Below are positions 12,984 through 51,754 of a stretch of DNA of 64,000 bases, one piece after another. Below the pieces are notes generated by a model. That model saw only the letters and a list, made by a program, of their open reading frames with translations, was not told where the DNA came from and made no database searches. Within the stretch, counting starts at the first letter, position 1. Each line of letters begins with the position of its first letter. The DNA comes from a virus, in the IMG/VR virus record IMGVR_UViG_3300020401_000001, positions 5,292 to 69,291 of that record; one strand, written 5' to 3'. A program made the position numbers and the translations under genes.

Positions 12984-13841
12984 ATGGAAGACGAAGAATT
13001 AGACTACAATTCGATTGGAATGAAAAATTCAGCTATCGACAGATTACAAGGGAATACGCCAACTCCTATTCCACTAAAACCAGTTGGAGAAAGACAATAC
13101 GGACAATCTGTTGTTAGCTCTGAAATAGTTGATGGAAGAAAAAAAATAACCACTACAACTCCATGGTCACAAAAGTTAGCTGGAGAAGGACAAACTTACA
13201 GACAAGCAGGAGTAGACCCAGCAGCAGCAAAACAGTATTGGCAAGCAAATCCTGACAAATACAAAGAGTATTTGAAAAGTAAAACAGGAATGCAAACAGG
13301 AAAAGACGTAAGCGTTAGATTTGAAGATATTCCCGCACCTTCCCCTACTCCCACACCATCACCACCTAAAACCCCACCAAGAAGAGCTACGTCTTACAAA
13401 TATAGAGCTGGAGGCATGGGTAGTGAATCTGTTGGTGGAAGTAATACTTTAAAAGGAGCTAAAGTTGCAGCACAAAGATTTGGAAACTTAAATCAGACTG
13501 TTGTTGATAAAGTTTTTGACGAAAAAGCTTACGGACCAAATGCAATGGGAAGATTAATTCAGACTTCTGAAGCTGCGAGAGCTAATCAAATAAGAGAAGG
13601 TCAAAAAGAAAACCCTAATTGGAAAAAAGATTTGATGGCAAACAAACAGATGTATTCAAAAATGAGAAAAGATGTTGCAGCTTGGAGAAAATCAGGAAGT
13701 GACCCAAATAAAGTACCTAAGTCAGTGAAAGAGTTTCAGGAAAGAATTGACAATTCATACGAAAGAGTATTTGATGGAGGTGCTAATACTAGAAGTAACA
13801 GTTCAGCAGCAGCTTATAAGTTTCAAAAATTTAACAATTAA
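12984..13841 (+). CDS. hypothetical protein with a Pro-rich linker
   Basis: 285 aa; contains [16 protein letters not shown]. Confidence 0.7.
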   Translation: MEDEELDYNSIGMKNSAIDRLQGNTPTPIPLKPVGERQYGQSVVSSEIVDGRKKITTTTPWSQKLAGEGQTYRQAGVDPAAAKQYWQANPDKYKEYLKSKTGMQTGKDVSVRFEDIPAPSPTPTPSPPKTPPRRATSYKYRAGGMGSESVGGSNTLKGAKVAAQRFGNLNQTVVDKVFDEKAYGPNAMGRLIQTSEAARANQIREGQKENPNWKKDLMANKQMYSKMRKDVAAWRKSGSDPNKVPKSVKEFQERIDNSYERVFDGGANTRSNSSAAAYKFQKFNN

Positions 13842-35029: not shown

Positions 35030-35890
35030 ATGGCAATCACACAACAACAATATTACGCAAATGACGCTTTATGGGGCGGAACACAATACACTAAGCTAGA
35101 AGATATAATAAATAACTTCTATGCATTCTATGTTGGTGATGGTAAAGTTATAGATACTGCTAAAAGGTATGATGTTGTATTTCATGCAAAGCGAGCTCTC
35201 CAAGAGCTACATTACGATGCACTAAAAGAAATAAGAGCTGTAGAAATAGAGGTGCCCCCTCAACTACAAATGATTTTGCCAAAAGATTTCGTAAGTCTAG
35301 TAAGGCTTTCTTGGATTGACACTAAGGGGAGATTTCATCCTATTACAGAAAACAGAGACACAGCTATTGGTGTAGCTTACCTACAAAATGATGATGCTAC
35401 ATATTCATATCAGTTTGACGCTGAAGGCAACATAGAGGTAGGTAGCACTATAAGCCGTGAACGTGCAAAAACTGTACAACCAGAAGACCAAGACTCTACA
35501 TCTTTATTAGACGAAATGTATGGTGGTCGTTTTGGTATGATAACAAATAAGGCAAACATAAATGGAACTTACAACATCAGTAAACACCTTGGCACAATAG
35601 AATTTAGTACAGAGCTTACAGACAAGCTCGTAATGATTGAATATGTTACTGACGGGCTCACAGACCTTGATGATAGTGAAATACAGGTCCATAAGTTTGC
35701 AGAAAACTATGTTTTCAAACAAATTGCTTACTCTATATTATCCACTAAGTTCGGGGTTCAAGAATACATTGTCAGAAGATTTCAAAAAGAAGCGTTTGCT
35801 GCATTAAAAAACGCAAGAATAAGATTGAACGATGTCAACCCTGTTGACCTTGTAAAAGCGATGAAAGGTCGAAACAAGTGGATTAAATAA
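35030..35890 (+). CDS. second ring/adaptor-like structural protein
   Basis: 286 aa; [22 protein letters not shown]; precedes the stabilisation protein. Confidence 0.6.
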
Positions 35891-38800
35891 TGAGATTAAG
35901 AAATACTTTTATTGGCGGCAAAATGAACAAAGACGTAGACGAGCGTCTTGTTCCAGATGGTCAGTATAGAGATGCTGAGAACATCAAAGTTGCTATGTCT
36001 AATAGTTCTGACGTTGGCGCCTTAGAAAATGTGCTGTCAAATCAACAAAAATCTTTTTTAAATACAGGAGATAATGCTGAAACAATAGGTAGTGCAGCTG
36101 TCGAATACACTAATTGCGTTTATTGGTTTGTAAAGTCTGACACATCTAGCGCTGTTTATGAATACAATATTACTACTGATTTGCAAAGAATAATATTGCT
36201 AGACACCAGAACAGGTTCAGACAATGTATTAAATTTTACTAAAGAAAATAGAATAAACAATGTAGACACTGTAGTTGACACTGATAACGGTAAGATATTT
36301 ATATTCTGGACAGATGGACTTAATCCTCCTAGAAAAATAGAAATAGATAGAGCAGCTGGATATGGAGAAAATAATTTTACAGATGAAGACATTAGTGTTA
36401 TTGTAAAACCTCCACTGCATAGACCTACGTTTACTTTGTCTGCAACAAACACAGCTGACGAAAATTACATCAAAGACAAATTTTTGCAGTTTTCATATAG
36501 ATATAAATACGTAGACAATCAATATTCAGCTATATCTCCATTTAGCAATCCTGCATTCGAACCCTATCCTTTTAAATATAACTACGGACTAAATAGCAAT
36601 GAGTCATTTGTTAATAGGTATAATGTTGTAAACCTAACAGTAAACTCAGGAAGCCACCTAGTTAAAGAAGTTGAAGTCTTATATAAAGAAGCTGGTAAAA
36701 CAAATTTATATGTTGTAGAATCATACAACAAAGAAAAGAAAACTTGGGATGACAATACTGATTATGTAGTTACATTCCAAAACAAAAAGATAAGCAAGAT
36801 ACTTCCAGAGAGTCAAATTAAAAGAATATTTGATGCTGTGCCAAGAAAAGCTTTTTCACAAACATTTATTGGTAATAGATTGATTTATGGAAATTACACA
36901 GAAAACTGGAATCTTATTGATGAGGTAGGCGGTGAAATAAAACCTGACTTTACTGCTTCTGTTTTAACAAATGAATTTGCTACTGCACCATACACAACCA
37001 TGAAGTCTGGTAGAGACTACGAAGTTGGTATAGTGTATTTAGATGATTATGGCAGAACTACAACAGTTCTTACCTCTGATGGAAATAGTGTTTTTGTACC
37101 AAACGAAAATTCATTATATCAATCTAAACTGCAAGTTGAGATAAGAAGCAAAGCTCCTGTATGGGCAAAGTATTTTAGATTTTTTGTCAAAGAAAGCAAA
37201 CTGCCATACGACATAGTTATTCCTACAAGATTTTATGTTGATGGAGCTTATGTGTGGATAGAATTAACTGGTAGTGACGTTAACAAAGTAGAAAAAGGAA
37301 CACGTTTAGTAGTAAAAGCAGACACTTCTGGACCTGTAAAAGGATATGTAGAAACAGAAGTCTTAGACCTACAAACACAAACAGTAAACTTTTTAGAGCC
37401 TGACCCAACAGTAGCAGAGCTAGAACAAAAAGCAGGATTGTATTATAAGATAAGACCAAAAGGGTTTACTTTCAATAATAATGCAGTAGAAATATATGAG
37501 TTTGAATCGAATCACAGCACAAGAGATAGAAGGGAAGATATGATAGACAGGGGCGATAAGCTTCAATATTTTAGCGACCCAATACCTTATCTATCTGAAT
37601 CAACTACACTTGCTGGGAACTCATTATCTAGGTCAGGAACTAATATAGCTCCGAGAGATATTAGATATAAAATAATAATAGATGCCGTAGGAGATGGCAT
37701 TACAACTTACGATGAGTTTAGAGTTGAATATGAAGACAACGGAGTTGCTTACGCTCAACCAGCTGTAACAATTACAGGAAGTAGTCAAACTATAACTAAC
37801 GGGCTTAGTGTAAACTTTAGCTCTCGTTCTGGTCACACTGTTGGTGATTATTGGATGATTAGTGGTTATGGTAAAGAGCCTTTGAACTTTGGGAATCGTG
37901 ACAGGTCTCATGCTTTGTTTAGAGGAGAACCTGGCAATGAAGTTATTGAGGCAGGGTCAATAGTAGAAATAGAATATATCGAATCACAAAAAGCTGGTGA
38001 CGGATATAGCAATAGTTTTACAGAATCATACACTTCAAGCAGTAAATATGCAAACTTAGAAGAGTGGTATTACGGAGAAAACCTTTCTGGATTTGGTCCA
38101 GGAGTAACAGATGCCCAAGTATTTTTTAGGCATGTTAACTTGACTCCAAATCACGGAGGTGAAGGGGATACTGCTTACAAAGTGCAGGTACAGCAAAACG
38201 GAACTATGTGTATGATAATCCAAAGTAAACAAAGACAATGGAATGAGAGAAATGCAAGGTCGAGAGTTTACACAACGGGATTATTAGAAATTAAGACATC
38301 AGATAGTTTACCTATTTTTGAAACTAAAGGAATAGAAAAAGATTCAGATATATTTTTTGAAGTTGGAGACACTTATGAGTTATCAGAGAATGACACTTTT
38401 CATGTTGGTAAAGCAGGTGATGTTCCTCAATCTTTTACTTCTCCTGCTGTAATTACAATAGACGCACATAACGCATGGGCTTGGGGTAATGGATATGAGT
38501 CAATAAAAATTAAAGACTTATTCAATAATCCAACATTTACTTTTGACACAAGACCAAGCACGTTTATAGAAAGCTATAGAGAAAATAACAGAGTAGCTTC
38601 TTTAACTTACTCTGGTGTTTACGAGCAAAGCACAAATTTTAATGCCTTAAATGAATTTAATTTATCTACGGCAAACTTTAAAGATATAGATGACGCTTTA
38701 GGTAGTATACAAAAAATAGTATCACGAGATAATGATATTGTTGTGTTTCAAGAAAACAAAATATCTAAACTCCTCTTTAATAAAAATATTATATTCAACA

Positions 38801-39798
38801 CTGACGGTTCAGGTAATATATCACAAACTAAAAATGTATTAGGAACTATAACTCCTTATACAGGAGAATTTGGTGTTGGACTAAATCCTGAAAGTGTTTG
38901 TAAATATGGAAACGTAATATATTTTGCAGATACAAGTAGAGGTTTTGTGTTTAGACTATCTAACGATGGACTAACTCAAATATCACAGTATGGCATGGCA
39001 AACTATTTTAGAAGCGAATTGCCTGTGCGTGATTTAAACAAGACTTTAGGTGGATACAATCCAAGAGACGGAGAGTATATTTTGTCTTTACAAGGAGGAA
39101 CAGAGTCTACAGACACTTTATTGTGGGTTGGAGATGAATATACATGTGAACAAACATTCGTTGATGATGTAGTAGAATGGAGAGGTAGCGATGCTGTATG
39201 TCTTGTTTCTTGTTATGGAGAGTGGAAGCCATCTGACATAGTAAGTGACGGTCAAGATTGGAGAATAGACGAATATTATTGTGAGCAAGAAGAGCAAAGA
39301 CCAACACCTGCTCCAATTCCTACGCCAGCTCCAGCACCTACACCAGTACCTGTTGTTGTGCCTTCGCCATCGCCAGTACCAGTGCCTACACCAGTGCCAG
39401 TTGTAGCTCCTAACCCAACACCTTCACCAGCACCGACACCAGCGCCTGTAGCGGACTTACCACCATCGCCAACACCTAGTCCTACTCCGTCACCTACGCC
39501 AGCACCCGTGGTAATTCCAACGCCTAGTCCTACGCCTAGTCCTACGCCTGCGCCAGCGCCTACACCTACACCAACACCAGCGCCAGCAAGCCCAACAGCA
39601 TTTAGGTTAAACCCATGTAACCCGTTTGGTAGTTATGGTAAGAAAATAGCATTTGACTCTGGTCTGTATGTCGGAGCTGTGGTTACAATAGAAGATGGAA
39701 ACTGTTATGCGGTTAGTGCTGCTATCACTGATACTGCTAATTCTACGGTATCTCAGATTTTCTTAAATTGTTATAATTGTACTAATGGAATATTTTAA
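35890..39798 (+). CDS. tail stabilisation (nozzle/muzzle, P22 gp10-like) protein, N-terminal part, fused to a Pro-rich stalk and Cys-rich tip
   Basis: F.GGKMNKD.DERL.P.GQYRDA.N start; FSYRYKY.D.QYS.ISPFS; GNRLIYGNY; NEFN; GEFG...NPES; [14 protein letters not shown], then an abrupt change to Trp/Cys motifs and (PT/PA/PS)n. Confidence 0.75.
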
Positions 39799-41583
39799 AT
39801 GAGTAATACAGGAACAAAAATAGTGACAAGATTAAGACTGTTTAAAGACGGTTTAGCAACTAGCAAGACAAAAGCAAATGTTGAGGGAGATAAATATTAT
39901 GTTGCTCCATTTGAAGACTTGGTAGATTGCAACCCTCTTGGACCACCTGCACCTGTACCTACTCCTACTCCTGCGCCAGTTGCTGTACCAGCTACACCAC
40001 CTGCACCTACACCTATTCCAATAGCAGTGCCTACGCCTTCGCCTACGCCTACGCCTAGTCCATCGCCTATTCCTGCGCCTGTACCTAATCCATCACCGAG
40101 TCCAACACCTGCACCTGCACCAATTCCTGTAGCTACTACACCGACACCAACTCCAGCACCAGTGCCAAGCCCTGTGCCTACACCTGCGCCAGCTGTAGCA
40201 CCAACTCCTGCACCAGTTATGCCTACTCCTACACCTGTGCCTGCTGCACCGACCCCTACACCAACACCAGCTCCAGCTCCAACAACTAATACTGAAAGTG
40301 TTTGGTCGGCAAATGCATTAAGCATTAATCAAGGAGTCTATAATGGAGATGTTTCCATAAGTGATGCGGAACAAACAATATTTGGTCCTGTGAACAGTGG
40401 ATATGATACAGTAACAGCTTTATATTTAAGTGACGATTCTGGAAGTTTAAATACCGCTCAGTCTGTTATAGAATCAAGTAATGCTGGCGGAACTATAACC
40501 GCTTACTTAAATCAAAATCAACAGGTTCCAATACAAGTAAATCAGGCAGCTCCTTACTTTGCTATAAACGATGTAGGTGGAGGCTCACAAGCGCCAATAA
40601 GAAGCGCACAACTTGTAGTTAAAATAGGAGCAGATAGCACCTTACAGGTTATAAGTGGTTCTGATTTATTCCATGAAATAAGTCCTCTTAACCCTGTACC
40701 TTCTCCAGTTGCAGCGCCAGTAGCAGCAGATGTATGTTTAACTAATCCTGCTGCTGTAACAATACAAAGTATTGGAGGCGGTAATAAATATGTATTTGGA
40801 GGTACACACGGAAACTATAAAACATCGGTTGGAACCTATGTATTAACAAACGTCCCTAGCGGTCACCCTATTGCAATTCTAAATAGTGGCAAAGAAACCC
40901 TTATAAGTTATACTGGTACTTATAATGCTGGTTCAAAAGGTATAAATAATGTTTATCATGATTATTATTATGGAGACGTTACTATTACTGTAAACGGAGA
41001 TTACGGAACAGTTAGCTATGATTGTTTAAATCATGGATATATGGGAGGTGAAAACAACTTAACATACGATAATGTCACTTGTTCAGCGCCTTCTCCAGTG
41101 CCAGTAGCACCTACACCAACACCTGTAGGAGCTCCTATAGCAGCTCCACAAGCTGTAACTCCTGTTCCACAGCCTACACCTGCACCTACACCAGCTCCTG
41201 TGCCTACACCTGCTCCAGTTAATCCAACTTATGCCTTATCGCAAAGCTCAACGATTAACGTACAGGGCATGTATATGAACGGAACACTTTGGTATTATTT
41301 CGGCACTTACGGTAGCGATAGTTATAGGTTTAGCGCAACTACAGGAACATATACATTCAACATTCCTCAAGCACACCCTATTGCTTTCTATACAGCAGGA
41401 ACAACAAACAGTTACAGTGGAGGTACTGTACAAGGAACTAAAAACGGATTAGATGGAAACAGCTATGATTATAGATATGGAACAGTAACATTAACAATAA
41501 ATGATACAAGCGCAACGCCAGTGAGTTATGAGTGTTTCTTCCATGGTTACATGGGAGGCTTGAATAATCTCATATTGGTATAA
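39799..41583 (+). CDS. Pro-rich modular protein with two cupredoxin-like (H...CxxHxxM) domains
   Basis: Shared N-module; long (P-T/A/S/V)n tracts; [16 protein letters not shown] and [16 protein letters not shown]. Confidence 0.8.
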
Positions 41584-41587
41584 CAAT

Positions 41588-41595
41588 TATCTTTG
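41588..41595 (+). promoter_or_regulatory. -7 promoter element inside the cassette
   Basis: TATCTTTG upstream of the ATG at 41607. Confidence 0.55.
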
Positions 41596-41606
41596 TATGA
41601 TATAAT

Positions 41607-42596
41607 ATGGCAAATACAGGAAGAAAAATATTCACAACGATACGTCAATATGTAAATGGCGTTTGGAATGGTAACGAGAAGTTCAATAGCACTGACGACC
41701 CCGATTACCAATACCCTGTATATGATGAAGCTGAGTGCCCACTACCAGCTCCTCCTGTCCCTAGTCCTATACCAACACCTAGCCCAATACCAACACCTAG
41801 TCCAGTGCCTGTTCCTGTGCCAGCAGTAGCGGAAGTAGTTCCTAATCCAGTACCAAATCCAGCTCCAACACCGACTCCTGCGCCTGTACCTGTTGTTATT
41901 CCTACACCTGCACCAGTTCCAAATCCAACACCCGCACCACAACCAGCGCCGACACCCGCTCCTACCCCAGTGCCAGCGCCTGTTCCTGCTCCTACTTCAA
42001 ACCAGTATGTAGTTCTAGGACATGGAAACACTCCAGAGTCTGCATGTAATGATTTAGGTGCTGACTTATTCTACATTGATGGAGGACAATTAGCTACATC
42101 AACAAATGTATATTACGATGAATGGGGTAATACAAAATCGCAACCACAATATTTTGCTCAATCTGGAGTTGTAAGATATTGGAATGGACAACAGTTTACA
42201 TCTTACGCAAGTTGTAATCAACCAACACCAACTCCTAACGCTCCAACACCTATACCTGTAGCGGCACCAACGGCTAACTGTGGAACCAATATATACTACA
42301 TAAGTGAAGGTAAATTCTATGGTTCTTATTTCTGCCAATCACCTTTCGGAGGAATGGTTGGAGGAGGAGCGGCAACGACTTACCCAATAACTATGGCGGT
42401 TACATCGAACTATCCTGGAAGCGTAAATGCTCAACTAGGAGCTCAACTATGCTACAATGGACAACCTTTCTCTGGAAACGGCTTTGAATATTTAATGAGT
42501 ACCTTCCCTAGTAGTTTTAATGGAAACGGAAGTCATTCGCTAGTAACAATTAATGATGACGGTATAGTTACCGCAGTTAAATATATGACTTGTTAA
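41607..42596 (+). CDS. Pro-rich modular protein
   Basis: Shared N-module, Pro stalk, two Cys-flanked domains. Confidence 0.8.
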   Translation: MANTGRKIFTTIRQYVNGVWNGNEKFNSTDDPDYQYPVYDEAECPLPAPPVPSPIPTPSPIPTPSPVPVPVPAVAEVVPNPVPNPAPTPTPAPVPVVIPTPAPVPNPTPAPQPAPTPAPTPVPAPVPAPTSNQYVVLGHGNTPESACNDLGADLFYIDGGQLATSTNVYYDEWGNTKSQPQYFAQSGVVRYWNGQQFTSYASCNQPTPTPNAPTPIPVAAPTANCGTNIYYISEGKFYGSYFCQSPFGGMVGGGAATTYPITMAVTSNYPGSVNAQLGAQLCYNGQPFSGNGFEYLMSTFPSSFNGNGSHSLVTINDDGIVTAVKYMTC

Positions 42597-42597
42597 T

Positions 42598-43350
42598 ATG
42601 GCAAATACAGGAAGTAAAATATACACAACACTGAGGCTCATAAAAAATGGAGTAAGGACTGTACACGTTAAACCAAACGTGCCAGAAGACCCTAATTTTA
42701 TACCTCCTTTTACAGATTTAGCAGACTGCTTTACTAATGCTCCTGCACCTGCGCCAGTTCCTGTACCTACACCTGCTCCTGTACCTAACCCCGTTCCAGC
42801 TCCAGGACCAGCGCCTACGCCAGTACCTGCTCCAAGCACAATAGTACCAACACCAAGCCCAACCCCAGCGCCAGTTTCAGGTGTTGTGCCGACACCCGCT
42901 CCTTCGCCAGTTCCTGCCCCAACAGTTCCTTCGCCAGTTGGAGGTGGTTCGACTTACTACTTAAGTGCGCCTAGACAAACTGCTGGAGAGTTATGTACAG
43001 CTGCATTCTCAATAGTTATGAGAGTACAAGTTACAGCTTCATCAGTTTCAACATCGTTAGGTGCGCAAGTAACTAAAGATGGAACTAGATTTGCTGGTAA
43101 TAATAAATATTATGCAATGGATAGATACAATGTTGACACAACACATTCAGGAACAACATGGTTGGCTGTGCAAATTGACAATGATGGTATTATACAAGAC
43201 ATAATTAAAATAGACTGTGGGGACTTTGCTTTCTATGACGGTTCAGGAGGATGGGATTCTCCAGACCCATACAATACACAACCACAAGATGATGGAGACC
43301 TTGTATATTATTATAAAAACGTAATGCAAGGAGGTGGACAAAATTTATAA
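42598..43350 (+). CDS. Pro-rich modular protein
   Basis: Shared N-module, Pro stalk, Cys-flanked domain. Confidence 0.8.
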   Translation: MANTGSKIYTTLRLIKNGVRTVHVKPNVPEDPNFIPPFTDLADCFTNAPAPAPVPVPTPAPVPNPVPAPGPAPTPVPAPSTIVPTPSPTPAPVSGVVPTPAPSPVPAPTVPSPVGGGSTYYLSAPRQTAGELCTAAFSIVMRVQVTASSVSTSLGAQVTKDGTRFAGNNKYYAMDRYNVDTTHSGTTWLAVQIDNDGIIQDIIKIDCGDFAFYDGSGGWDSPDPYNTQPQDDGDLVYYYKNVMQGGGQNL

Positions 43351-43352
43351 AT

Positions 43353-43535
43353 ATGAGCTTTACAGGAAAAAAATATTATACAAAATTAAGAAAGTTCGTA
43401 AACGGAAAACCAACACAACAAGTGAAGGAAAATAAGATTACGGACCCAGATTATATAAAACCTTATGATGATATAAATGGATGCCCAAAAGGCACGTCTT
43501 CGCCTGCACCAGTTGCAGCGCCAACGACATATTAA
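43353..43535 (+). CDS. minimal protein consisting of the shared N-module and a short Pro tail
   Basis: MSFTGKKYYTKLRKFVNG...DPDYIKPYDD..GCP..SPAPVAAPTTY. Confidence 0.75.
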   Translation: MSFTGKKYYTKLRKFVNGKPTQQVKENKITDPDYIKPYDDINGCPKGTSSPAPVAAPTTY

Positions 43536-43541
43536 TTAATT

Positions 43542-45299
43542 ATGGGAGAGAAGTACAGTAAAATAAGAAAATACGTAAATGGCTTTCCAAAGCAAGACCA
43601 AGCCATCAATAGCCCTAACGAGCCAGGGTACATACCGCCTGTTTATGATGCAGGTCCATGTACTACATGTGAGCCAGAGGACGATGGTGATGTTATTGAA
43701 TGGAGAGGTCATGCTTTTTACTGTGAGCAAGAAGACGCTCCTACGCCTACTCCTAGTCCTACACCTAGTCCTACGCCTAGTCCAACTCCTAGCCCTACAC
43801 CTACGCCGACACCCACTCCAACACCCACTCCGACACCTAGTCCGAGTCCAGTTCCTGCGCCAAATCCTAGTCCAATACCAACTCCAGCACCTACGCCAGC
43901 TCCTTCTGTAGGATATGTGTATTATACTGTTAATGATTGTGCAAACACTTTTAATGATGTTGTAAGAAGCACTTTTTCTTTAGATACAGGAAGTGTTGTG
44001 AAGGCTACAGGAGTGACTGGTTGTTTAGAAATAGGAAGTTTAACACAGCCATCAGGCACAAACACTGTATATGAAACTTACACTGATTGTACTGATTGTG
44101 GCGCAACAACTCCTACTCCAACGCCAAGTCCAACACCTAGCCCAGTTCCAAATCCAACACCAAGTCCAACGCCTGCGCCTATTCCAAATCCAACACCAAG
44201 TCCAACGCCTGCGCCTTCTGTAACACCTGTAGTGCCTACACCTGTCCCACAACCTACGCCTACACCTATTCCAGGACCAGCGCCTTCGCCTACGCCTACC
44301 CCAACGCCAGCGCCTATTCCAATTCCTAATCCATCTCCAACACCAGCACCAGCATCAATACCGTGCTATGAGTTTGACATTGCAAATAATTCAAACCCAT
44401 TATTAGATGACTCATACACATACACGCAATGTGGTGGAGGAACAACTTCAGGAGCAGTATTCTATGGAGATGCAATAACTGTTTGTGGTACATCCTTCAC
44501 TCATGTAGGTGCAGGATTAACTGTAACAAACACACTTGTTCCTTGTACTGGAAGCCCTACTCCTAGCCCTACACCAGCACCTACTCCTAGCCCAACGCCA
44601 GCACCAACACCTGCGCCAGTCGCAAATCTTAACTATGTTGGATTAGGTAATGCAAACAGCGCTTCGGCTGCTTGTAGCGACAACTTAAATGACATGTTCT
44701 ATATAGATGGTGGACAGTTAGCTACTTCAACAGGAATTTATTATGATGCTGCGGGACAAAATCCTGCACAAGATACGCACTACACAGATGGAAATGGATT
44801 CTATGTTGTTTGGAACGGCACATCTATTACAAACCTATCGTCTTGTCCTTCAGGACCTGCGCCAACATCTCCTAGTCCAATATATATACCACCTACACCG
44901 AACCCTACACCTGTAGCACCTACTCCTAATCCTACGCCAGCACCAACACCAGTAGCGCCTACACCAAATCCAACGCCCGCTCCTGCACCGCAGCCGACAC
45001 CTAGTCCTACGCCAGCGCCTGTAGCACCGACACCTAGTCCTACGCCTGCACCTCAGCCAGTAGCGCCGCAGCCTTCGCCAACTCCAGCTCCAGCTGCTGT
45101 AGCTTCTTATAGAGTTGAGGTTCAAAAACAATCAGGAGTTAGCTACATGATATTTACATACACCAATTCTTATGGACAGGCTCAATACAAAAATAGTTCA
45201 GCCGCCTATGAGTATGTGTGTGCGCAAGGAGGTACAGTTCAGGCAATGTCAGGAGTACAGTCCCAGCAGAACCTATACACAAGTTGCGTTGGTAATTAA
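43542..45299 (+). CDS. Pro-rich modular protein with four stalks and four Cys-containing domains
   Basis: Shared N-module; (PTPS)n, (PT)n and (PA)n tracts alternate with ~60-70-aa domains. Confidence 0.8.
44146..44216 (+). repeat. exact 35-nt direct repeat with 36-nt period in a Pro stalk
   Basis: TTCCAAATCCAACACCAAGTCCAACGCCTGCGCCT at 44146 and 44182. Confidence 0.8.
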
Positions 45300-45342
45300 A
45301 AAATGATTAACTTAGTATGATATTTAAATATAATACAATCAA

Positions 45343-46608
45343 ATGTTCACAGAAATACCAAATTTTCTCACTCATGATGAGTGCGATTTATTTATACAAT
45401 TAATAGAAAAACAAAACACTCGTTCACAAGTTGCTGGAAGTGGAAGTGATAATTCTAAAATAGAAGATAGTAGAACTTCTTACACTTCTAATTTTGGCGA
45501 TAATATGTTACTTCCAAAAGCTCTAAAAGACAGGATTGCAGCTCATTTAGACATAGATGTTGCAAGGGGCGAAACATTACAAGGTCAAAAATACGAAGTA
45601 GGTCAATATTTTAGACCACATTTAGATTGGTTTCAAGGTGATGCATATAACAATCATTGTTTGCATTCTGGAAACAGAACTCACACTTTTATGTTGTATC
45701 TAAATGATGGTTTTGAAGGTGGAGGAACTGATTTTCCAAACCTAGGCAAAACTGTAAAACCAGAAAAAGGAAAAGCTGTAGTTTGGCGCAACATGGATGA
45801 TAATGGTAATGGTATTTCTGACGTTATGCATGAGGGTATGGATGTAACTAAAGGAACTAAATACATAGTTACAAGTTGGTGGAGAGAAAAAGAATTTAAT
45901 GGGGCTGAAAACGAAAGACTTGCAAGAGAATTTCATGAAGCACAAAAAAAAGAACAAGAATCTAAGATTGTAAATATAAATCCAAATTTAAAAACATTTA
46001 AAACTGTAGATGAAATACCTAGGTTTACAGAAAATGGATTTATGAAGGCTAAAGTGCCTCAAGATGTGTGGGGTATAATACAAGACTCATATCACATGTT
46101 AAAAGATAAAGAGGTTGCAGAACATTTTACAGGAAAAGAAGGTATTATAGATACAATAGTTACTGATGCGGAAAGCAGCACACTTTTAAGTTTTGAACAT
46201 ATACCAAATATTAGAACTCAAATACATAAAATGCTCATGCCGTTACATGAAGAGTGGGCAAAAACAAGACTAGAACCATCTTTCGTATATGGTATAAGGT
46301 CTTATCAAAGGGGAGCTACGTTAGCAAAACACGTTGATAGAATAGCTACTCATCATATATCTACTATTATTATTGTAGACAAAGACTTAAAGTGCGGTTG
46401 TCAAACTAAAGAGTTTGGTGATGATTGGGCTTTAGATATACAGGGTCATGACGGACAGTGGTATGAAGTTTTTGCTGAGCCAGGAGAGATGATATTGTAC
46501 GAATCTGCTGTTTGTGAACACGGTAGAGACAAACCTTTTCAGGGAACAAGCTTTAAAAACTTTTACACACACTACAAGTTAGTGGATTACCAGTATGCGG
46601 GACAATAA
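45343..46608 (+). CDS. prolyl 4-hydroxylase fused to a second 2OG-Fe(II) oxygenase domain
   Basis: Domain 1: SRTS, E.LQ..KYEVGQYFRPHLD, NRTHTFMLYLND..GGGTDFP, KPEKGKAV.W.N, HEG.DV.KG.KY...W. Domain 2: YGIRSY.RG..L..HVDR, PGEMILYES..CEHGR. Confidence 0.88.
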   Translation: MFTEIPNFLTHDECDLFIQLIEKQNTRSQVAGSGSDNSKIEDSRTSYTSNFGDNMLLPKALKDRIAAHLDIDVARGETLQGQKYEVGQYFRPHLDWFQGDAYNNHCLHSGNRTHTFMLYLNDGFEGGGTDFPNLGKTVKPEKGKAVVWRNMDDNGNGISDVMHEGMDVTKGTKYIVTSWWREKEFNGAENERLAREFHEAQKKEQESKIVNINPNLKTFKTVDEIPRFTENGFMKAKVPQDVWGIIQDSYHMLKDKEVAEHFTGKEGIIDTIVTDAESSTLLSFEHIPNIRTQIHKMLMPLHEEWAKTRLEPSFVYGIRSYQRGATLAKHVDRIATHHISTIIIVDKDLKCGCQTKEFGDDWALDIQGHDGQWYEVFAEPGEMILYESAVCEHGRDKPFQGTSFKNFYTHYKLVDYQYAGQ

Positions 46609-49165
46609 ATACATTTCTTTTGACCCGTGGTGGGGTGGTTTTTCTAACATAAGAATGACGTATGAATTAGTAGGAGCTTTATCTGTTATAACTGGTAGGA
46701 CAATAATTTTACCTCACAAAATATATTGTTTATTCTTATCAGAATGGCAAGATAAAAAAACATGGTTTGACATGTTTGATGCTTTAGATAAAAAAAAATT
46801 TAGAAAGCATTTTGATTGTATAGAATATTATGACATTCCAGAATATGAAAATCTTGAAAACGATACGCAATATTTCGAAAATATTTCGTCTGTTGCGAAA
46901 GTTATTACTTTTGGCGACAAAGACGGACAACTAGGTCCTATGAAAGGTCCTGGTAACGATTATGTCTTAACATGTGGCATAGAGGACCATAGCGAGTTTA
47001 ACATTTTTAAAGACGACAGACAAGTCATAGATTTAGAGTGTGATGATAAGTTCATGCACTTTCCAAGAAACTTGTTCGGTCATTTTTATTATCATGTATA
47101 TGGCAAAACACCTGTTATTAGAAACAGGATAAAAGAGAAAGTAAACTTAGGGATACAGTATAGACCTGATATTTTTGAGAAAGCTAAAAAGATTACAGAC
47201 AAACTAGGTGAATTTAATGCTATTCATGTTAGAAGAAATGACTTTTTGCAGGTAAGAAAAGATATTGCAGAGCGTCAAACAGTAAACCTTCTAGATGATA
47301 TTTCTAACAGAATACCTAACGACAAGCCTTTATTTATAGCTACAGACGAAAAAGACAAGTCTGTATTTTTGCCATTAAAAAAGAAATACAACGTATTATA
47401 TCTAACTGATTTTCCACAATCAGGAGTAAACGACACTGACGATTTGCTTTTAGACCAAGTTGTATGCTCTCAAGCAGATATTTTTTTAGGTAGTCACCTA
47501 TCGACTTTTTCTGACTACGTAAACATTATTAGAGGTCAGCAAAATAAAAAAGATTTTCACAGAGAAGGAACTAACTTTAACAGACCTAAAATATCATATA
47601 ATAGATTTCCATGGGAAGTAGAAGAGTATGGATGGGATAAAACGTGGAGTTTTCATTGGGAATATGAACAATCATACTTTAACATAGCTGTATATGGGTC
47701 TCACAACGCTTCTGTTGCATTATCCCACAAAGCTGATGTTCTTGAGGTAGTAGAGTTAGAAAGGTTTGTAAACAAGAAAAACGCAGCTTTTTATTTTCAT
47801 TTTCCAGAAGAAAACCCAGACGATTTGACTTTGCAAATACATAATTATTTTGTTAAAAAATATGGTAGTTATGTGTATGATAATTGCTTATACAATAGCT
47901 GTTTAACTAATATAAACGTTTTGCCTGCTAAAAACTATGAGTGGGTAGGACATCATCTTGCTCATGTAAACAATGTTATATTCCAATCGCCAGCGAAAAA
48001 AAGTTTAAATATATCTTTTGATGGGGGCTCTGATGAAGGGCATTTTAATATATATAGAACTGAAGAAGATAAGGTGCCAGAAAAAATATTTTCTACAAAA
48101 CAAGATATATGCGTCCCCTATGCTGCTGTAGCCCACTATCTGTCTCCAATAAAACAAGAAGAAAATTGGTGGTGGGGTAACTTGGTATATGCAGGTAAGC
48201 TTATGGGACTGTCTGCATACGGGACAGTAAATCAAGATGACTATGATAAAATGTATCGCTACTTTAAGATGCAACAAACAGATAATGTAAATACAGCGCA
48301 TGAAAACTTCCAAAGAATATTTAATGTAAGTCCTGAAAAAAGATTTGATGAAGAAAAATCTTACGACTTAGCCGCTGCTACACAAAAAGTTTTTGAGGAT
48401 ATATTTAAAGAAACTATAGACCCTTTTGTTGAGACGCATAAAGATTATGAGTTACAGTTTAGTGGAGGTGGCGCCTTAAATGTTATAAACAACGCTAAAT
48501 GGGACGCTTTTGTTAGTCCTAATCCTGACGATAGAGGATTATCTGTAGGGATGTTGTTTCATAAAATAAAACCTGGTCATGTTGTTGACACAAAATATTT
48601 AGGCTCAGAAATGTTTGGTATGTATACACAACACAAACCATACAGCATTGACGAGATGTGTGAGGATTTATTAGAAGGCAAAATAATTGGTTTATGTCAA
48701 GGACGTGGAGAGCACGGAGCAAGAGCTTTGTGTAATAGAAGCATACTATGTCTGCCTAAAAAAGGTTTCAAAGAAAAACTTAATGACCAAGTAAAACATA
48801 GAGAGGCTTTCCGACCTTTCGCACCTGTATGTAGAAAGGAGGATGCTAACACGTGGTTTGATTTTGGAAAACACACTGAATATATGAGCCACAACGCAAC
48901 AGTTAAAAATGTAAATAAAAGTATACAATCTATAATACACAAAGACTATACCGCTAGGTTACAAACAGTCACCTCGTCATCAAATCCCTTTGTTTATTTA
49001 CTTTTAACTAGAATGAAGGAATTAGGTCATGAGCCAATATTAATAAACACATCGTTTAATGTAATGGGAAAACCTATAATAAATCAGTGGCAGGAAGCTA
49101 TAAGTATGCTGAATGATACTGGATTAGACATATTAACTGACGGCAAAAGTAAAATTTATGGATAG
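46595..49165 (+). CDS. fusion: O-fucosyltransferase-like GT-B domain plus NodU/CmcH/TobZ-type O-carbamoyltransferase
   Basis: N part: GGFSNIRM, FNAIHVRRNDF, LFIATDE, DQVVCSQA..FLGS..STFS. C part: SHNAS, ELERF, HHLAH, DGG, GKLMGLSAYG, SGG.ALN, E.GARAL.NRSIL, KHRE.FRPFAP, TARLQTV, NTSFN..GKPI. Confidence 0.85.
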   Translation: MRDNKYISFDPWWGGFSNIRMTYELVGALSVITGRTIILPHKIYCLFLSEWQDKKTWFDMFDALDKKKFRKHFDCIEYYDIPEYENLENDTQYFENISSVAKVITFGDKDGQLGPMKGPGNDYVLTCGIEDHSEFNIFKDDRQVIDLECDDKFMHFPRNLFGHFYYHVYGKTPVIRNRIKEKVNLGIQYRPDIFEKAKKITDKLGEFNAIHVRRNDFLQVRKDIAERQTVNLLDDISNRIPNDKPLFIATDEKDKSVFLPLKKKYNVLYLTDFPQSGVNDTDDLLLDQVVCSQADIFLGSHLSTFSDYVNIIRGQQNKKDFHREGTNFNRPKISYNRFPWEVEEYGWDKTWSFHWEYEQSYFNIAVYGSHNASVALSHKADVLEVVELERFVNKKNAAFYFHFPEENPDDLTLQIHNYFVKKYGSYVYDNCLYNSCLTNINVLPAKNYEWVGHHLAHVNNVIFQSPAKKSLNISFDGGSDEGHFNIYRTEEDKVPEKIFSTKQDICVPYAAVAHYLSPIKQEENWWWGNLVYAGKLMGLSAYGTVNQDDYDKMYRYFKMQQTDNVNTAHENFQRIFNVSPEKRFDEEKSYDLAAATQKVFEDIFKETIDPFVETHKDYELQFSGGGALNVINNAKWDAFVSPNPDDRGLSVGMLFHKIKPGHVVDTKYLGSEMFGMYTQHKPYSIDEMCEDLLEGKIIGLCQGRGEHGARALCNRSILCLPKKGFKEKLNDQVKHREAFRPFAPVCRKEDANTWFDFGKHTEYMSHNATVKNVNKSIQSIIHKDYTARLQTVTSSSNPFVYLLLTRMKELGHEPILINTSFNVMGKPIINQWQEAISMLNDTGLDILTDGKSKIYG

Positions 49166-50012
49166 AATATTTTTAAGTATAGCATCATATAGAGACCCAG
49201 ACTTAATAAACACAATAAAAGACGCACACAAAAGGGCTGACAGACCTGATAGAATAACATTTGGAGTATTGTTTCAGGGCACTAAAGAAGAGATGAACAC
49301 TTTTCTTTCTGAAGCCGTAGGAAAAATGAATGTTAAATATGTGCACCATAACGATACAAAAGGAACAGGATGGGCAAGAAATATCCTTACAAGAGACATG
49401 CTTGAGGATGAAGAGTATTGGTTGCAAATAGATTCACACACAAGATTTATTGAAGGATGGGACACAAAGCTTATTAATTTATATAATAAAATAGGAGAAG
49501 ATTGTCTTATATCAGCATACCCTCCACACTTCGGAATGAACGAGTCCTATGATGTATATACAACTAAAACCCTAAACAACAAAGCTTTAGTAGAGGGCTT
49601 TACCGATGTGTTCAGTTTTGAAAACACTGTAGGAAAAATTCCTGAGCAAGAATATGAAGAGTCAATAACGGCTGCGGGGGCTTTTCAGTTTACAAAAAGA
49701 CATGTAGCAAAATCTATGACGTTCGATGCATATTTTAATCCATGGATGGACCAAGAAATTTCTTCTTGTTTGGCATGGATGAATGGATTTAACATTTATG
49801 CGCCTAGAGATGCTGTATTGTGGCACTGTTATGAAGATAATCATATAGGGTCTAATGAAAAATGGAGAGGTCTGGTAGCTGACGAAGTAAAAGTTACTGG
49901 TTACGAAGACAAGCCCTTTGATATTATAAAACACTGGCATACAAAGAGAAACTGGAATCAGTGGAAAGATAGGGTTCTTGTAGATATTAATGATTTAAAA
50001 AAAGAAAAATGA
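49158..50012 (+). CDS. Skp1-type hydroxyproline/polypeptide alpha-GlcNAc transferase (GT60-like)
   Basis: IFLSIASYRDP.L..TI, P.RI.FGV..Q, G.GWAR, EEYWLQIDSHTRF..GWD..LI, ISAYPP. Confidence 0.8.
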   Translation: MDRIFLSIASYRDPDLINTIKDAHKRADRPDRITFGVLFQGTKEEMNTFLSEAVGKMNVKYVHHNDTKGTGWARNILTRDMLEDEEYWLQIDSHTRFIEGWDTKLINLYNKIGEDCLISAYPPHFGMNESYDVYTTKTLNNKALVEGFTDVFSFENTVGKIPEQEYEESITAAGAFQFTKRHVAKSMTFDAYFNPWMDQEISSCLAWMNGFNIYAPRDAVLWHCYEDNHIGSNEKWRGLVADEVKVTGYEDKPFDIIKHWHTKRNWNQWKDRVLVDINDLKKEK

Positions 50013-50992
50013 AAACAGCTTTAGTTTTAGGTGGTGGAGGTTTTATAGGCTCACACCTTATAAAAAGATTAAAAGAAGAAGGCTACTATGTTAGAGCAGT
50101 AGACTTAAAAAAACCTGAATTTTGGAAAACAGTAGCAGACGACTTTATTGTTGGAGATTTAAGATGGAGTCATATATGCTCTGCCGCATTCAGACCTTTA
50201 GAAGGAAAAAGAAAATTCGATGAGGTTTATCAGCTTGCTGCCGATATGGGTGGCGCTGGTTATCTGTTTACTGGTGATAGTGATGCAGATATTATGCACA
50301 ACTCTGCCTTAATCAATATGAATGTATTAAGGGAATGCGTTGTTGATGAGCATGCTCCTGGTAGAATATTTTACGCAAGTAGCGCCTGTGTGTATCCAGA
50401 GTACAATCAGCTGGACCCAGAAAGCCCAAAATGTACAGAAGATAGCGTATATCCTGCTGAACCTGACTCTGAATATGGATGGGAAAAATTGTTTAGTGAA
50501 AGAATGTACATGGCTTTTGCAAGAAATAAAAACTTAGATGTAAGGATAGGAAGGTTTCATGGAATCTTTGGACCATACGGAACATGGACTGACGGCAAAG
50601 AAAAAGCTCCTGCTGCAATTTGTAGAAAAGTTGCAGAATCAAACGATAGTATAGAAATATGGGGAGATGGAGAACAAACTAGGTCGTTTATGTATATAGA
50701 TGATGCTATTGATACAGTCCGTAAATTTATGATGAACAAAGGATTTCAGGGACCAATGAATATAGGTTCTGAAGAAATGGTATCTATAAATAACTATGCA
50801 CGCATAGTAATGGAAGTTGCAAAAAAAGATTTGGATATTGTGCACATAGAAGGTCCACAAGGTGTGAGAGGAAGAAACTCAGACAACACATTAATGGAGC
50901 AAGAATTGAACTGGACTCCAGGCGGTAGTCTTAGAGATGGTGTGGAAAAAACGTACAAGTGGATTGAAGAGCAGGTGCAAAAACTGTCTTAG
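50009..50992 (+). CDS. GDP-mannose 3,5-epimerase-like NAD-dependent epimerase
   Basis: GGGGFIG, LAADMGGAG, YASSACVYPE, YGWEK (YxxxK), GKEKAPAAICRK, WGDGEQTRSF, NIGSEEMVS, GVRGRNSDN. Confidence 0.88.
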   Translation: MKTALVLGGGGFIGSHLIKRLKEEGYYVRAVDLKKPEFWKTVADDFIVGDLRWSHICSAAFRPLEGKRKFDEVYQLAADMGGAGYLFTGDSDADIMHNSALINMNVLRECVVDEHAPGRIFYASSACVYPEYNQLDPESPKCTEDSVYPAEPDSEYGWEKLFSERMYMAFARNKNLDVRIGRFHGIFGPYGTWTDGKEKAPAAICRKVAESNDSIEIWGDGEQTRSFMYIDDAIDTVRKFMMNKGFQGPMNIGSEEMVSINNYARIVMEVAKKDLDIVHIEGPQGVRGRNSDNTLMEQELNWTPGGSLRDGVEKTYKWIEEQVQKLS

Positions 50993-51001
50993 ATAAATTA
51001 G

Positions 51002-51009
51002 TAAATTTG
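51002..51009 (+). promoter_or_regulatory. -7 promoter element giving an apparently leaderless transcript
   Basis: TAAATTTG with the ATG at +5. Confidence 0.6.
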
Positions 51010-51013
51010 TGCT

Positions 51014-51754
51014 ATGGCAAACTACGAGAACAAAACAGTTGGGTTTAGTGAAATAAATAACGGCTGGACGTCATTTTATTCTTACATTCCTGAAGATATG
51101 GTCTACATGAAGTCAGACTTTTACACTTTTAAGGGCGGTAATATATACAAACATAACATTGATGACGCTTCTCGTAACAAATTTTACGATAAATATTATC
51201 CTAGCAAGGTTGAAACTATCATAAATGATGACCCAGAAGCTGTGAAAAACTTTAGAACTCTTAATATGGAAGGCTCTTCTGCTTTCTGGAGAGTAGAAAT
51301 AAACACAGACTTAGATAAAGGCGGAGCAACTTATGATGATTTTGAAGAGAGAGAGCGATTGTTTAAAGCTCACATCAGAACTGACAGAGACGACAATCTT
51401 AATTTAGAAAGACTTACCGTGCAAGGGCTAGGTACACTAATATCTACAAATGGCACATCTATGTATTTTAGATTTATAGATAACGCCATTGAGTATGGTG
51501 ACTTCGTTTATAAAATATATGGTAAATCGTATACGTATTTAGGTAAAATTATTGCTGTATTTGAAGATTATATTATGTTAGACTCTATAGCTGACCCAGT
51601 AGACCCTGGTCAATTTTGTTTTGCTACAAAAGACCCAGTGATAGAAAGCTATGGATTGAAAGGATATTTTGGCAGCTTTACGTGTACAAGTTATGAATCA
51701 ACTCCAATAGAATTGTTTGCAGTTGGTACAGAAGTAACGCAAAGCAGTAAATAA
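51014..51754 (+). CDS. probable C-terminal part of the tail stabilisation protein, as a separate gene
   Basis: TVGFSE..NGWTSFYSYIPE, FYTFKGG.IYKHN, N.FY, VKNFRTL..EG, GLKGY, ELFAV. Confidence 0.65.
   Translation: MANYENKTVGFSEINNGWTSFYSYIPEDMVYMKSDFYTFKGGNIYKHNIDDASRNKFYDKYYPSKVETIINDDPEAVKNFRTLNMEGSSAFWRVEINTDLDKGGATYDDFEERERLFKAHIRTDRDDNLNLERLTVQGLGTLISTNGTSMYFRFIDNAIEYGDFVYKIYGKSYTYLGKIIAVFEDYIMLDSIADPVDPGQFCFATKDPVIESYGLKGYFGSFTCTSYESTPIELFAVGTEVTQSSK

Follow-up and report, generated by a model that had tools for sequence, protein, structure and literature searches.

Hydroxyproline-rich glycoproteins (HRGPs) of plants and algae are made in the endoplasmic reticulum and Golgi by prolyl 4-hydroxylases (P4Hs) and by glycosyltransferases (GTs) that act on hydroxyproline (Hyp). 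The passages of the plant literature drawn on here describe Hyp O-glycosyltransferases such as HPAT of family GT95 (PMC8012813, PMC5371791). Here we examine a candidate counterpart in an uncultured marine podophage—a cassette of proline-rich fibre genes and glycan-modifying enzyme genes that lies inside a split muzzle gene. The window, as we call the whole stretch of 64,000 nucleotides analysed, comprises bases 5292–69291 of the complete 69,291-bp virus record IMGVR_UViG_3300020401_000001, which carries direct terminal repeats. We favour, with modest confidence, the reading that the cassette is a phage-encoded system that modifies its own muzzle-attached fibre proteins post-translationally; by analogy it would be a variant of viral self-modification, and its closest analogues are the making of HRGPs in plants and algae and the hydroxylases of chloroviruses and mimivirus.

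The likeness to the plant and algal pathway has several parts: the N-terminal domain of the phage hydroxylase is closest to Chlamydomonas P4H-1, long X-Pro tracts are candidate substrates, the epimerase is of the plant type, and the cassettes of sister phages carry an HPAT-like GT after the hydroxylase. The predicted phage system differs in being cytoplasmic and prokaryotic; moreover, the window has an O-fucosyltransferase (O-FucT)-like enzyme and a GT60 enzyme rather than an HPAT, along with a second dioxygenase domain and a carbamoyltransferase.

Cytoplasmic Hyp glycosylation is described for Skp1 of Dictyostelium and Toxoplasma, in which the portions of the sources used here assign hydroxylation to PhyA and glycosylation to Gnt1, a GT60 enzyme (PMC3515798, PMC11570480). 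The phage likewise encodes a GT60 protein (PF11397) beside a prolyl hydroxylase, and an initial annotation of the window, made from its letters alone, leaned on this analogy. It proved weak: the phage hydroxylase is of the collagen/algal type (fold-comparison Z 20–23.5) rather than the PHD/PhyA type (Z 16.0 for the PHD-type Dictyostelium enzyme), the phage has no Skp1, its candidate substrates are long repeats rather than a single proline, and the usual next gene after the hydroxylase encodes an O-FucT-like protein instead of GT60.

Viruses offer nearer parallels. Chlorovirus PBCV-1 encodes a collagen-type P4H, and Eriksson et al. are said to have found in 1999 that this enzyme hydroxylates alternating proline repeats encoded by the same virus; PBCV-1 is, however, a eukaryotic giant virus, and we know of no transferase cassette linked to its P4H. 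Mimivirus combines collagen-like proteins with the bifunctional lysyl hydroxylase/glycosyltransferase L230—repetitive structural substrates, a 2-oxoglutarate (2OG) hydroxylase, and a glycosyltransferase in one virus, as here—but it modifies lysine instead of proline, in collagen triplets instead of Pro-X dipeptides, and it is a giant virus of amoebae. In bacteriophages, Freeman et al. reportedly described in 2023 mycobacteriophage GTs that modify the phage's own structural proteins, capsid and tail tube, in the host cytoplasm; that system is not known to include a hydroxylase or Pro-X tracts, and its GT families are different ones. A 2OG "prolyl 3,4-dihydroxylase" was detected in a cyanophage virion proteome, according to the part of the source used here (PMC12801897). 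The initial annotation knew of no bacteriophage pathway of this form, and our literature search, whose coverage left out most subscription journals, turned up no description of a prolyl hydroxylase in phages that is linked to proline-rich virion proteins, nor of phage Hyp glycosylation.

A two-domain prolyl hydroxylase

The first enzyme gene of the cassette, P4H2 (45343–46608, + strand; 421 residues), matches PF13640 at 1.2e-16 and the prolyl 4-hydroxylases of the PDB at 2.9e-24. The name prolyl 4-hydroxylase, given by the initial annotation, stands for its N-domain (residues 1 to ~195); the protein as a whole has two domains, and a second Fe(II)/2OG dioxygenase (residues ~226–421) must be added to the earlier description. 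In the AlphaFold model (mean predicted local distance difference test score, pLDDT, 86.8), residues 1–189, a double-stranded beta-helix fold, are closest to Chlamydomonas P4H-1 (2jij; Z 23.5, rmsd 1.6, 169 residues), followed by PBCV-1 vCPH (5c5t; Z 22.1), human C-P4H-II (7zsc; 20.9), the P4H of B. anthracis (5iax; 20.4), and P4H-TM (6tp5; 20.2). EF-Tu/PHD-type hydroxylases (Z 16–18), the Dictyostelium enzyme among them, and mimivirus L230 (6ax6; 14.1) score lower.

Across 14 homologs at 43–78% identity, two sets of residues do not vary: H93/D95/H163/K173 in the N-domain, which aligns with the corresponding motifs of B. anthracis P4H, and H330/D332/H393/R395 in the C-domain. We take H93/D95/H163 to be the H-x-D...H iron triad and K173 to be the 2OG-binding lysine; H330/D332/H393 is the H-x-D...H triad of the second domain. 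By its sequence and model, the N-domain is a collagen/algal-type prolyl 4-hydroxylase with a predicted intact Fe/2OG site. The C-domain (residues 226–421; window 46018–46608) is nearest in fold to HalB (Z 14.5), 2rg4 (13.1), AviO1 (13.0), and EvdMO1 (12.7); because AviO1 and EvdMO1 are sugar-modifying oxygenases, and because a stand-alone homolog of this domain adjoins an O-FucT gene in cyanophage S-SCSM1, the C-domain may act on glycan rather than peptide. NCBIfam holds no family for P4H2, and none of 50,697 phage records—a collection that may not include this genome or very near ones—covers at least 80% of the protein.

Proline-rich fibre proteins in a split muzzle gene

Directly ahead of the enzyme genes stand six consecutive open reading frames (ORFs) with tracts of proline alternating with Thr, Ala, Ser, or Val, long in five and short in the one that starts at 43353, just as the initial annotation had reported. 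By a protein-window criterion, the tracts measure 108, 189, 126, 78, and 292 residues in the muzzle N-terminal part and in ORFs B, C, D, and F, respectively; the 60-residue ORF E has a short proline stretch only and no tract that passes. Together the tracts hold 793 residues with 312 prolines, the spacing from one proline to the next is two in 260/302 cases, and T, A, S, or V precedes proline in 258 of 312. Plant P4Hs hydroxylate proline after Ala, Ser, Thr, or Val.

At the DNA level, a pattern of six alternating prolines has 141 matches in the phage's own 69-kb genome and none in each of five complete or near-complete genomes (60–79 kb) of cultured relatives, which have a muzzle and no hydroxylase; the Pro-X excess is thus far beyond chance. 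All but one of the matches listed (41 of the 141 are not among them) fall in the cassette. The sole outside match among those listed, at about 13332, is a short 11-residue stretch in a 285-residue early-region ORF (12984–13841). The strict DNA pattern misses (TAPT)n and understates the tracts of loci L021 and L072, and the counts given below use the protein-window criterion instead.

The setting of these genes needs one correction. The initial annotation described a consecutive block, which it is; the whole cassette, however, sits within a split muzzle gene. The muzzle N-terminal part (35890–39798, + strand; 1302 residues) matches Pfam crAss_MUZ (PF25731; 66.8 bits, cut-off 27) and phrog_14478 (2.3e-259), and the C-terminal part is a separate 246-residue ORF (51014–51754, + strand) that matches crAss_MUZ_C (PF25729; 48.4 bits, cut-off 27) and phrog_18548 (8.4e-44). 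Both crAss-type muzzle domains are therefore present, in two ORFs 11.2 kb apart. In Cellulophaga phage phi38:1, gp097 (1324 residues) has both parts joined and is followed by homologs of the window's next genes; since the muzzle is one gene there and two ORFs here, about 11.2 kb (39799–51013) has been placed inside it. Residues 1–1069 of the N-terminal part are homologous to the intact muzzle. In tblastn comparisons they are 40% identical to the phi38:1/Calle proteins and 35–41% identical to structural proteins of cultured marine Flavobacteriia podophages as a group (Cellulophaga phi38:1, phi40:1, and Calle, Maribacter Panino, Tenacibaculum Gundel_1, Cellulophaga phi19:3, and the Flavobacterium elemo phages). 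Beyond residue 1069 the protein has gained a 230-residue tail with Cys motifs, the 108-residue Pro-X tract (residues 1135–1242, nucleotides about 39292–39615), and a small tip domain. In phi19:3 and Panino a large ORF is followed by an adjoining small ORF, a putative muzzle C-terminal part, with no cassette between.

The five ORFs that follow are all on the + strand. ORF B (39799–41583; 594 residues) has an N-terminal module of ~45 residues, Pro-X tracts at residues 44–170 and 423–484, and a globular domain present twice; ORF C (41607–42596; 329 residues) has the same module and tracts at residues 42–137 and 198–227; ORF D (42598–43350; 250 residues) adds to the module a tract at residues 42–119 and a C-terminal globular domain; ORF E (43353–43535; 60 residues) consists of the module and a short SSPAPVAAPTT tail, with no cargo domain; and ORF F (43542–45299; 585 residues) has a variant module and four Pro-X tracts (292 residues in total) between small Cys-bearing domains. 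ORF B has no match in Pfam or PHROG. A protein-atlas search with its globular part returned unnamed viral clusters (0.89–0.90) and a T4 gp9/10-like cluster (0.86), which serve as leads only.

The ~45-residue module is common to ORFs B–F (window 39799–43670) and also heads a 465-residue ORF (L106:5885–7282) of a phage-like contig that is only distantly related and whose muzzle is intact (E 2e-10 to 5e-5; 1.1e-9 for the ORF E N-terminus). It is a candidate docking tag for the muzzle. ORF E is kept at 95–97% identity among close relatives, and it may be a remnant or a cap. The tip domains between the tracts (39595–45299) mostly end in C-x-x-C just ahead of the next linker, and the earlier Cys residues of each could be metal sites or disulfides.

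Several observations bear on where these proteins end up. In relatives at 50–57% hydroxylase identity, tracts and tip domains are fused to the C-terminal end of the muzzle N-terminal part and to the N-terminal end of the muzzle C-terminal part; residues 311–409 of ORF B, for instance, share 52% identity (E 1.4e-22) with a domain that locus L018 carries as a fusion to its muzzle C-terminal part. Because such fusions occur on both halves in relatives, and because one tract is fused to the muzzle N-terminal part in the window itself, the proline-rich proteins are plausibly displayed on the virion, in keeping with the initial annotation's idea of virion substrates. Between close relatives the proline-rich ORFs change faster than the enzymes, as is expected of adsorption proteins; in L010/L011, identity is 75% for ORF F and 94% for the hydroxylase.

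The cassette genes all run in the same direction with gaps of 0 to 43 nucleotides, or overlaps. Neither sigma-70 promoter-like sites (65 vs 60.1 +/- 7.8) nor terminator-like sites (16 vs 12.0 +/- 3.2) exceed shuffled controls, so the operon structure is read from spacing alone. Megablast of the region against the 50,697 phage records gave no match. Near-identical DNA to window 43542–51754 occurs in 20 marine metagenome run rows from nine studies; 8 of these rows contain at least half of the sampled words, and two may be this DNA's own source sample. No RNA dataset is among the sequencing runs listed as containing this segment.

Co-occurrence of hydroxylase and proline-rich proteins

The co-occurrence that the initial annotation proposed as a check is borne out: in many lineages of phages, and also in some contigs of Bacteroidota, the two-domain hydroxylase adjoins Pro/Thr-rich ORFs. 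A hydroxylase-centred scan gave 420 candidate viral stretches, of which 378 code for the two-domain protein (at least 378 contigs); 80 loci were kept. Pooling gave 102 loci, which were reduced to 58 clusters at 95% hydroxylase identity, each represented by the member with the most ORFs. The ORF directly upstream of the hydroxylase (−1) carries a Pro/Thr tract in 31/57 clusters, against 5/195 for distant ORFs (3/106 at offsets of −4 or beyond, 2/89 at offsets of +6 or beyond), while the ORF directly downstream (+1) is proline-rich in 0/58. Within the −2 to +5 ORFs, a tract is found in 45 of 58 clusters. The architecture that recurs is a muzzle N-terminal part with tract, tract ORFs where present, the two-domain hydroxylase, variable enzymes, and a muzzle C-terminal part with tract.

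The pairing also appears in other settings. An (APTPAPT)n ORF stands right after the GDP-mannose 3,5-epimerase (GME) gene in L036, downstream of helicase and ribonucleotide reductase genes; a (TAPT)n-LamG-like ORF lies ahead of DNA polymerase in L021; a (TAPT)n ORF separates a long tail fibre from the hydroxylase in L072; and in L120–122 a tract ORF of 1120–1170 residues is followed by the hydroxylase and then by an HPAT-like GT. The low-complexity tracts persist down to 50% hydroxylase identity.

On contigs of metagenome-assembled genomes labelled Bacteroidota or Saprospiraceae, L107 (328–1512) and L110 (1370–2401), the gene immediately before a two-domain hydroxylase encodes a protein with an (SPTA)n or (APTV)n tract, an arrangement that may represent a cellular version of the system. 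By eye, this upstream protein has a Tat-like signal, the tract, and a C-terminal domain that resembles a type IX secretion system sorting domain; a shorter (PT)n tract protein, again judged by eye, precedes the two-domain hydroxylase on a further Bacteroidota-type contig (L108:1–792). As a control, bacterial homologs of the single-domain P4H have a directly adjacent tract ORF in 1/39 cases; 33 of the 80 metagenome loci in this control were dropped as the P4H ORF was not recovered by the ORF/phmmer step.

A second scan, centred on GT60, found relatives encoded in at least 579 viral stretches, of which 80 loci were kept. The full module—both dioxygenase domains, O-FucT, and GT60—is present in 30/86 loci analysed. 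Outside the phage's own clade, a flanking tract ORF occurs in 9/21 module loci and in 7/55 GT60-only loci, and at the level of GT60 clusters a tract is nearby in 5/5 with the full module vs 2/10 with GT60 only (Fisher p 0.007). Taken together, these genomic comparisons support well a functional link between the hydroxylase and the proline-rich proteins.

Cyanophage S-SCSM1 was first read as carrying the full module and was then excluded, as it has only O-FucT, the C-type dioxygenase, and the carbamoyltransferase, with no N-type P4H match. Long (PR/PQ/PN)n and (PT/PS)n tracts do occur in two of its proteins, one VrlC-like and of the virion, the other the baseplate hub (NC_070962.1 28463–28788 and 172919–172992), and are therefore not evidence for a hydroxylase–tract model.

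Downstream enzymes and the glycan toolkit

Three more enzyme genes follow P4H2, and the four overlap successively by 14, 8, and 4 nucleotides. The initial annotation had placed four overlapping enzyme genes directly after the proline-rich ORFs, and its identities for them—P4H, O-FucT/carbamoyltransferase fusion, GT60, and GME—hold by Pfam, PDB, and fold matches. A crude check found no long hydrophobic N-terminal stretch and no membrane or secretion signal in any of the four.

The fusion protein (46595–49165, + strand; 856 residues) joins an O-FucT-family domain at residues 6–310 (PF10250 5.9e-20; 72.5 bits, cut-off 31.5) to a NodU/TobZ-type O-carbamoyltransferase at residues ~366–849. Carbam_trans_N (62.4 bits, 6.5e-17) and Carbam_trans_C (173.6 bits, 3.4e-51) both exceed their cut-offs; phrog_1601 matches at 2.1e-95, covering 7–521 of 528, and the PDB carbamoyltransferases TobZ, GdmN, and NovN match at 1e-23 to 7e-33. 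For the O-FucT domain, the only solved matches are to POFUT2, at 1e-5 over about 105 residues. Its HVRRNDF motif, which we take to be the GDP-sugar-binding H-x-R-R-x-D motif, recurs across five full-length homologs in the form H[VI]R[RS]xDF. The fusion was also considered as a NodU ortholog and rejected: at 117.5 bits against the NCBIfam NF041651 cut-off of 1000, it is a family member and not an equivalog.

The next gene (49158–50012, + strand) encodes a GT-A glycosyltransferase of 284 residues that belongs to GT60, the family of Skp1-Hyp and polypeptide alpha-GlcNAc transferases, and matches PF11397 at 1.7e-33 (117 bits, cut-off 21). Its YRDPD and LQIDSH motifs are invariant, as is the D92-S93-H94 metal motif (DxH). 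The top 29 structural entries for its model (pLDDT 84) are all mucin-type polypeptide GalNAc-transferases (Z 18.2–20.5 over about 250 residues), which relates the fold to the GT27 peptide O-glycosyltransferases; no GT60 or Gnt1 entry appears in these fold lists, which are uninformative either way on that relationship. A sequence search against solved structures returned nothing at E 0.01, and NCBIfam has no family for this protein.

Last in the block is the epimerase (50009–50992, + strand; 327 residues), which over residues 6–325 matches PDB 8sg0 at 3.8e-88 and 2c59 at 5.4e-88; the next-best short-chain dehydrogenase/reductase family, at 5.6e-22, trails the plant GMEs by 66 orders of magnitude. 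SSAC.YPE and EKAPAA, presumably the GME catalytic motifs, are identical to GME in the printed alignment, and by sequence the protein is a GDP-mannose 3,5-epimerase of the plant type.

In relatives, the gene directly after the hydroxylase varies. It has an O-FucT-like domain in 32/58 clusters, where the domain stands alone in 14, is fused to GT60 in 12, and is fused to a carbamoyltransferase in 6; elsewhere it belongs to a ~270-residue size class (9 clusters), a ~200-residue class (8), GT60 (1), or other genes. The ~200-residue class corresponds to a 206-residue protein in which a GT domain of the DXD sugar-binding kind is recognised (E 1.7e-9). To the ~270-residue class corresponds a ~276-residue family (L120:4930–5760, L171:13128–13961, and 13 other loci), which lies downstream of the hydroxylase, directly so in L120–122, L127–128, and others; 9/15 of its members match Pfam HPAT (PF23452) at E <= 0.1, the best at 4.3e-8. 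When two members were scanned singly, they scored 25.2 bits (cut-off 23.9). A profile of this HPAT-like family matched no solved structure, and no HPAT-like gene was identified in the window.

Cassettes of relatives also include GME, a GMD-like protein, a DegT aminotransferase, UDP-galactopyranose mutase, a PLOD-type GT, methyltransferases, and a radical SAM/SPASM protein, the last of which sits between hydroxylase and GT60 in one lineage (L137:11146–12054). Three loci (L021:2546–5665, L036:8099–10852, L109:8029–12579) encode giant O-FucT/GT60 fusions of 915–1516 residues with an extra N-terminal domain of ~320 residues; this carries an LF(L/I)DPDM(V/I)F motif and may be a third glycosyltransferase domain.

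What stays constant, then, is a core of tract, hydroxylase, and glycosyltransferase, with an interchangeable glycan toolkit around it. This pattern is the strongest indirect argument we can draw from the gene content for hydroxylation-dependent glycosylation, and it points to the O-FucT-like enzyme, more than to GT60, as the one that may be coupled to the hydroxylase. The gene fusions of O-FucT with carbamoyltransferase here and with GT60 in 12/58 clusters indicate that these steps are tied together.

Alternative explanations

A number of observations count against a system that modifies its own fibres, and they are gathered here. The initial annotation had named independence of the enzymes from proline-rich genes as the contrary outcome. 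In our counts, 13/58 dereplicated hydroxylase clusters, some of them on short contigs, have no tract in the −2 to +5 ORFs. Loci L023–L026 and L028 (12–31% complete) have long flanks and no Pro-X pattern. Most of the muzzle-phage loci are of one lineage with conserved gene order, and their counts are not independent events. Among bacterial-type two-domain loci, an upstream tract was flagged in 2/10, with a third, short one seen by eye; L109, L182, L183, L186, L208, L251, and L255 have no such upstream tract protein. In the first GT60-centred screen, 48/55 loci without the full module have no tract, and since GT60-like genes are so common and mostly lack tracts, their usual phage role may be something else. 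Pro-X linkers are, besides, common in unmodified bacterial proteins. Lastly, an unpublished analysis cited in the section of PMC7019647 used here found no hydroxyproline in PBCV-1 particles despite the P4H.

The explanation that survives best beside self-modification holds that the targets of the enzymes belong to the host, being its surface glycans, its glycoproteins, or its nucleotide-sugar pools during infection, for example in superinfection exclusion, and that the Pro-X tracts are unmodified linkers; we consider it improbable. The frequency of GT60-like genes in phages without tracts speaks for it, as do cyanophage clusters of carbamoyltransferase, O-FucT-like, epimerase, and GT genes far from structural genes, such as the one beside nrdA/nrdB in S-SCSM1, and the position of the module among replication genes in L036, L021, and L024. 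Yet the first gene of the block is of a peptidyl-prolyl hydroxylase type, which argues for a protein substrate, and tract ORFs are strongly enriched at −1 over distant positions. The non-structural settings of L021, L036, and L072 still have a (TAPT)n ORF only a few genes away from the module, and in L036 it is the next gene downstream; the crude check, besides, found no membrane or secretion signal on the enzymes.

We think it unlikely, too, that enzymes and proline-rich genes were merely co-inserted at a permissive hot spot, the muzzle break, with no enzyme–substrate relation between them. The cargo of the break is indeed very variable (DegT aminotransferase, GMD-like, radical SAM/SPASM, and methyltransferase-like ORFs), and conserved gene order inflates the association counts; however, the pairing turns up again beyond the muzzle phages, Bacteroidota contigs included, the tracts persist while hydroxylase identity falls to 50%, and phi19:3, whose putative split muzzle (gp120 + gp121) is without the enzymes, has no tracts. 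DNA hypermodification, with a dioxygenase that hydroxylates a base and transferases that decorate it as in phage TET/JBP-like systems, is very improbable: phage dioxygenase/glycosyltransferase clusters for DNA modification are known, reportedly from Pyle et al. in 2024, and a GTP cyclohydrolase gene lies near the L024 module, but the P4H2 N-domain scores Z 20–23.5 against P4Hs as compared with 12.3–15.8 against the AlkB family (13.4 for E. coli AlkB) and 11.9 against NgTET1, the cassette sits in a structural operon, and the proline-rich ORFs are given no explanation.

Proposed mechanism

Under modification of the phage's own fibre proteins, the P4H domain would act late in infection and hydroxylate proline in the (Pro-Thr/Ala/Ser/Val)n linkers of the muzzle N-terminal part and of four of the five docking-module fibre proteins, ORF E having only its short proline stretch. 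The O-FucT-like domain would transfer a GDP-L-sugar, for which the likeliest candidate is L-galactose that the phage epimerase would derive from GDP-mannose of the host; GDP-L-galactose is proposed as the donor because the GME gene adjoins. L-Galactose has a 6-OH that L-fucose lacks, and this hydroxyl would suit TobZ/NodU-type carbamoylation. GT60 would transfer N-acetylhexosamine onto Hyp and/or Thr/Ser, the fused carbamoyltransferase would cap a sugar hydroxyl, and the second dioxygenase domain would carry out a further oxidation of peptide or glycan. Stiff, glycosylated stalks that resist proteases would result, and they would keep the variable tip domains at a distance from the tail.

The initial annotation had set these steps in a fixed order—Pro to Hyp, then GlcNAc, then L-galactose or L-fucose, then carbamoyl. 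That order is not supported, as the O-FucT-like gene, and not GT60, most often follows the hydroxylase. As a whole, the earlier interpretation is partly supported: the enzyme–substrate link is well supported by comparative genomics, and the chemistry and the step order are proposals.

A broader proposal, which we offer only tentatively, is that a widespread group of marine phages builds HRGP-like tail stalks in the bacterial cytoplasm with the two-domain hydroxylase and an interchangeable toolkit (O-FucT-like enzyme with L-galactose, GT60, HPAT-like GT, DXD-type GT, and carbamoyl cap), the glycan serving beside the protein tip as a variable adsorption determinant. That such stalks mimic algal glycoproteins toward the glycan-uptake machinery of Flavobacteriia is pure speculation.

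Significance

Confirmation would make this the first system described in a bacteriophage for modifying and glycosylating proteins by way of hydroxyproline, and it would place HRGP-like chemistry inside the bacterial cytoplasm. The system is not the curiosity of a single genome: the hydroxylase is on at least 378 viral contigs, and the cassette is in marine metagenome runs of nine studies, one of them perhaps the source. If the reading is true, compact cytoplasmic enzymes would become available for making Hyp-glycopeptides, and the "auxiliary" genes of marine phages for 2OG oxygenases, carbamoyltransferases, and glycosyltransferases would, as a class, find an explanation. For the phages themselves, host recognition and virion stability would gain a further, post-translational layer.

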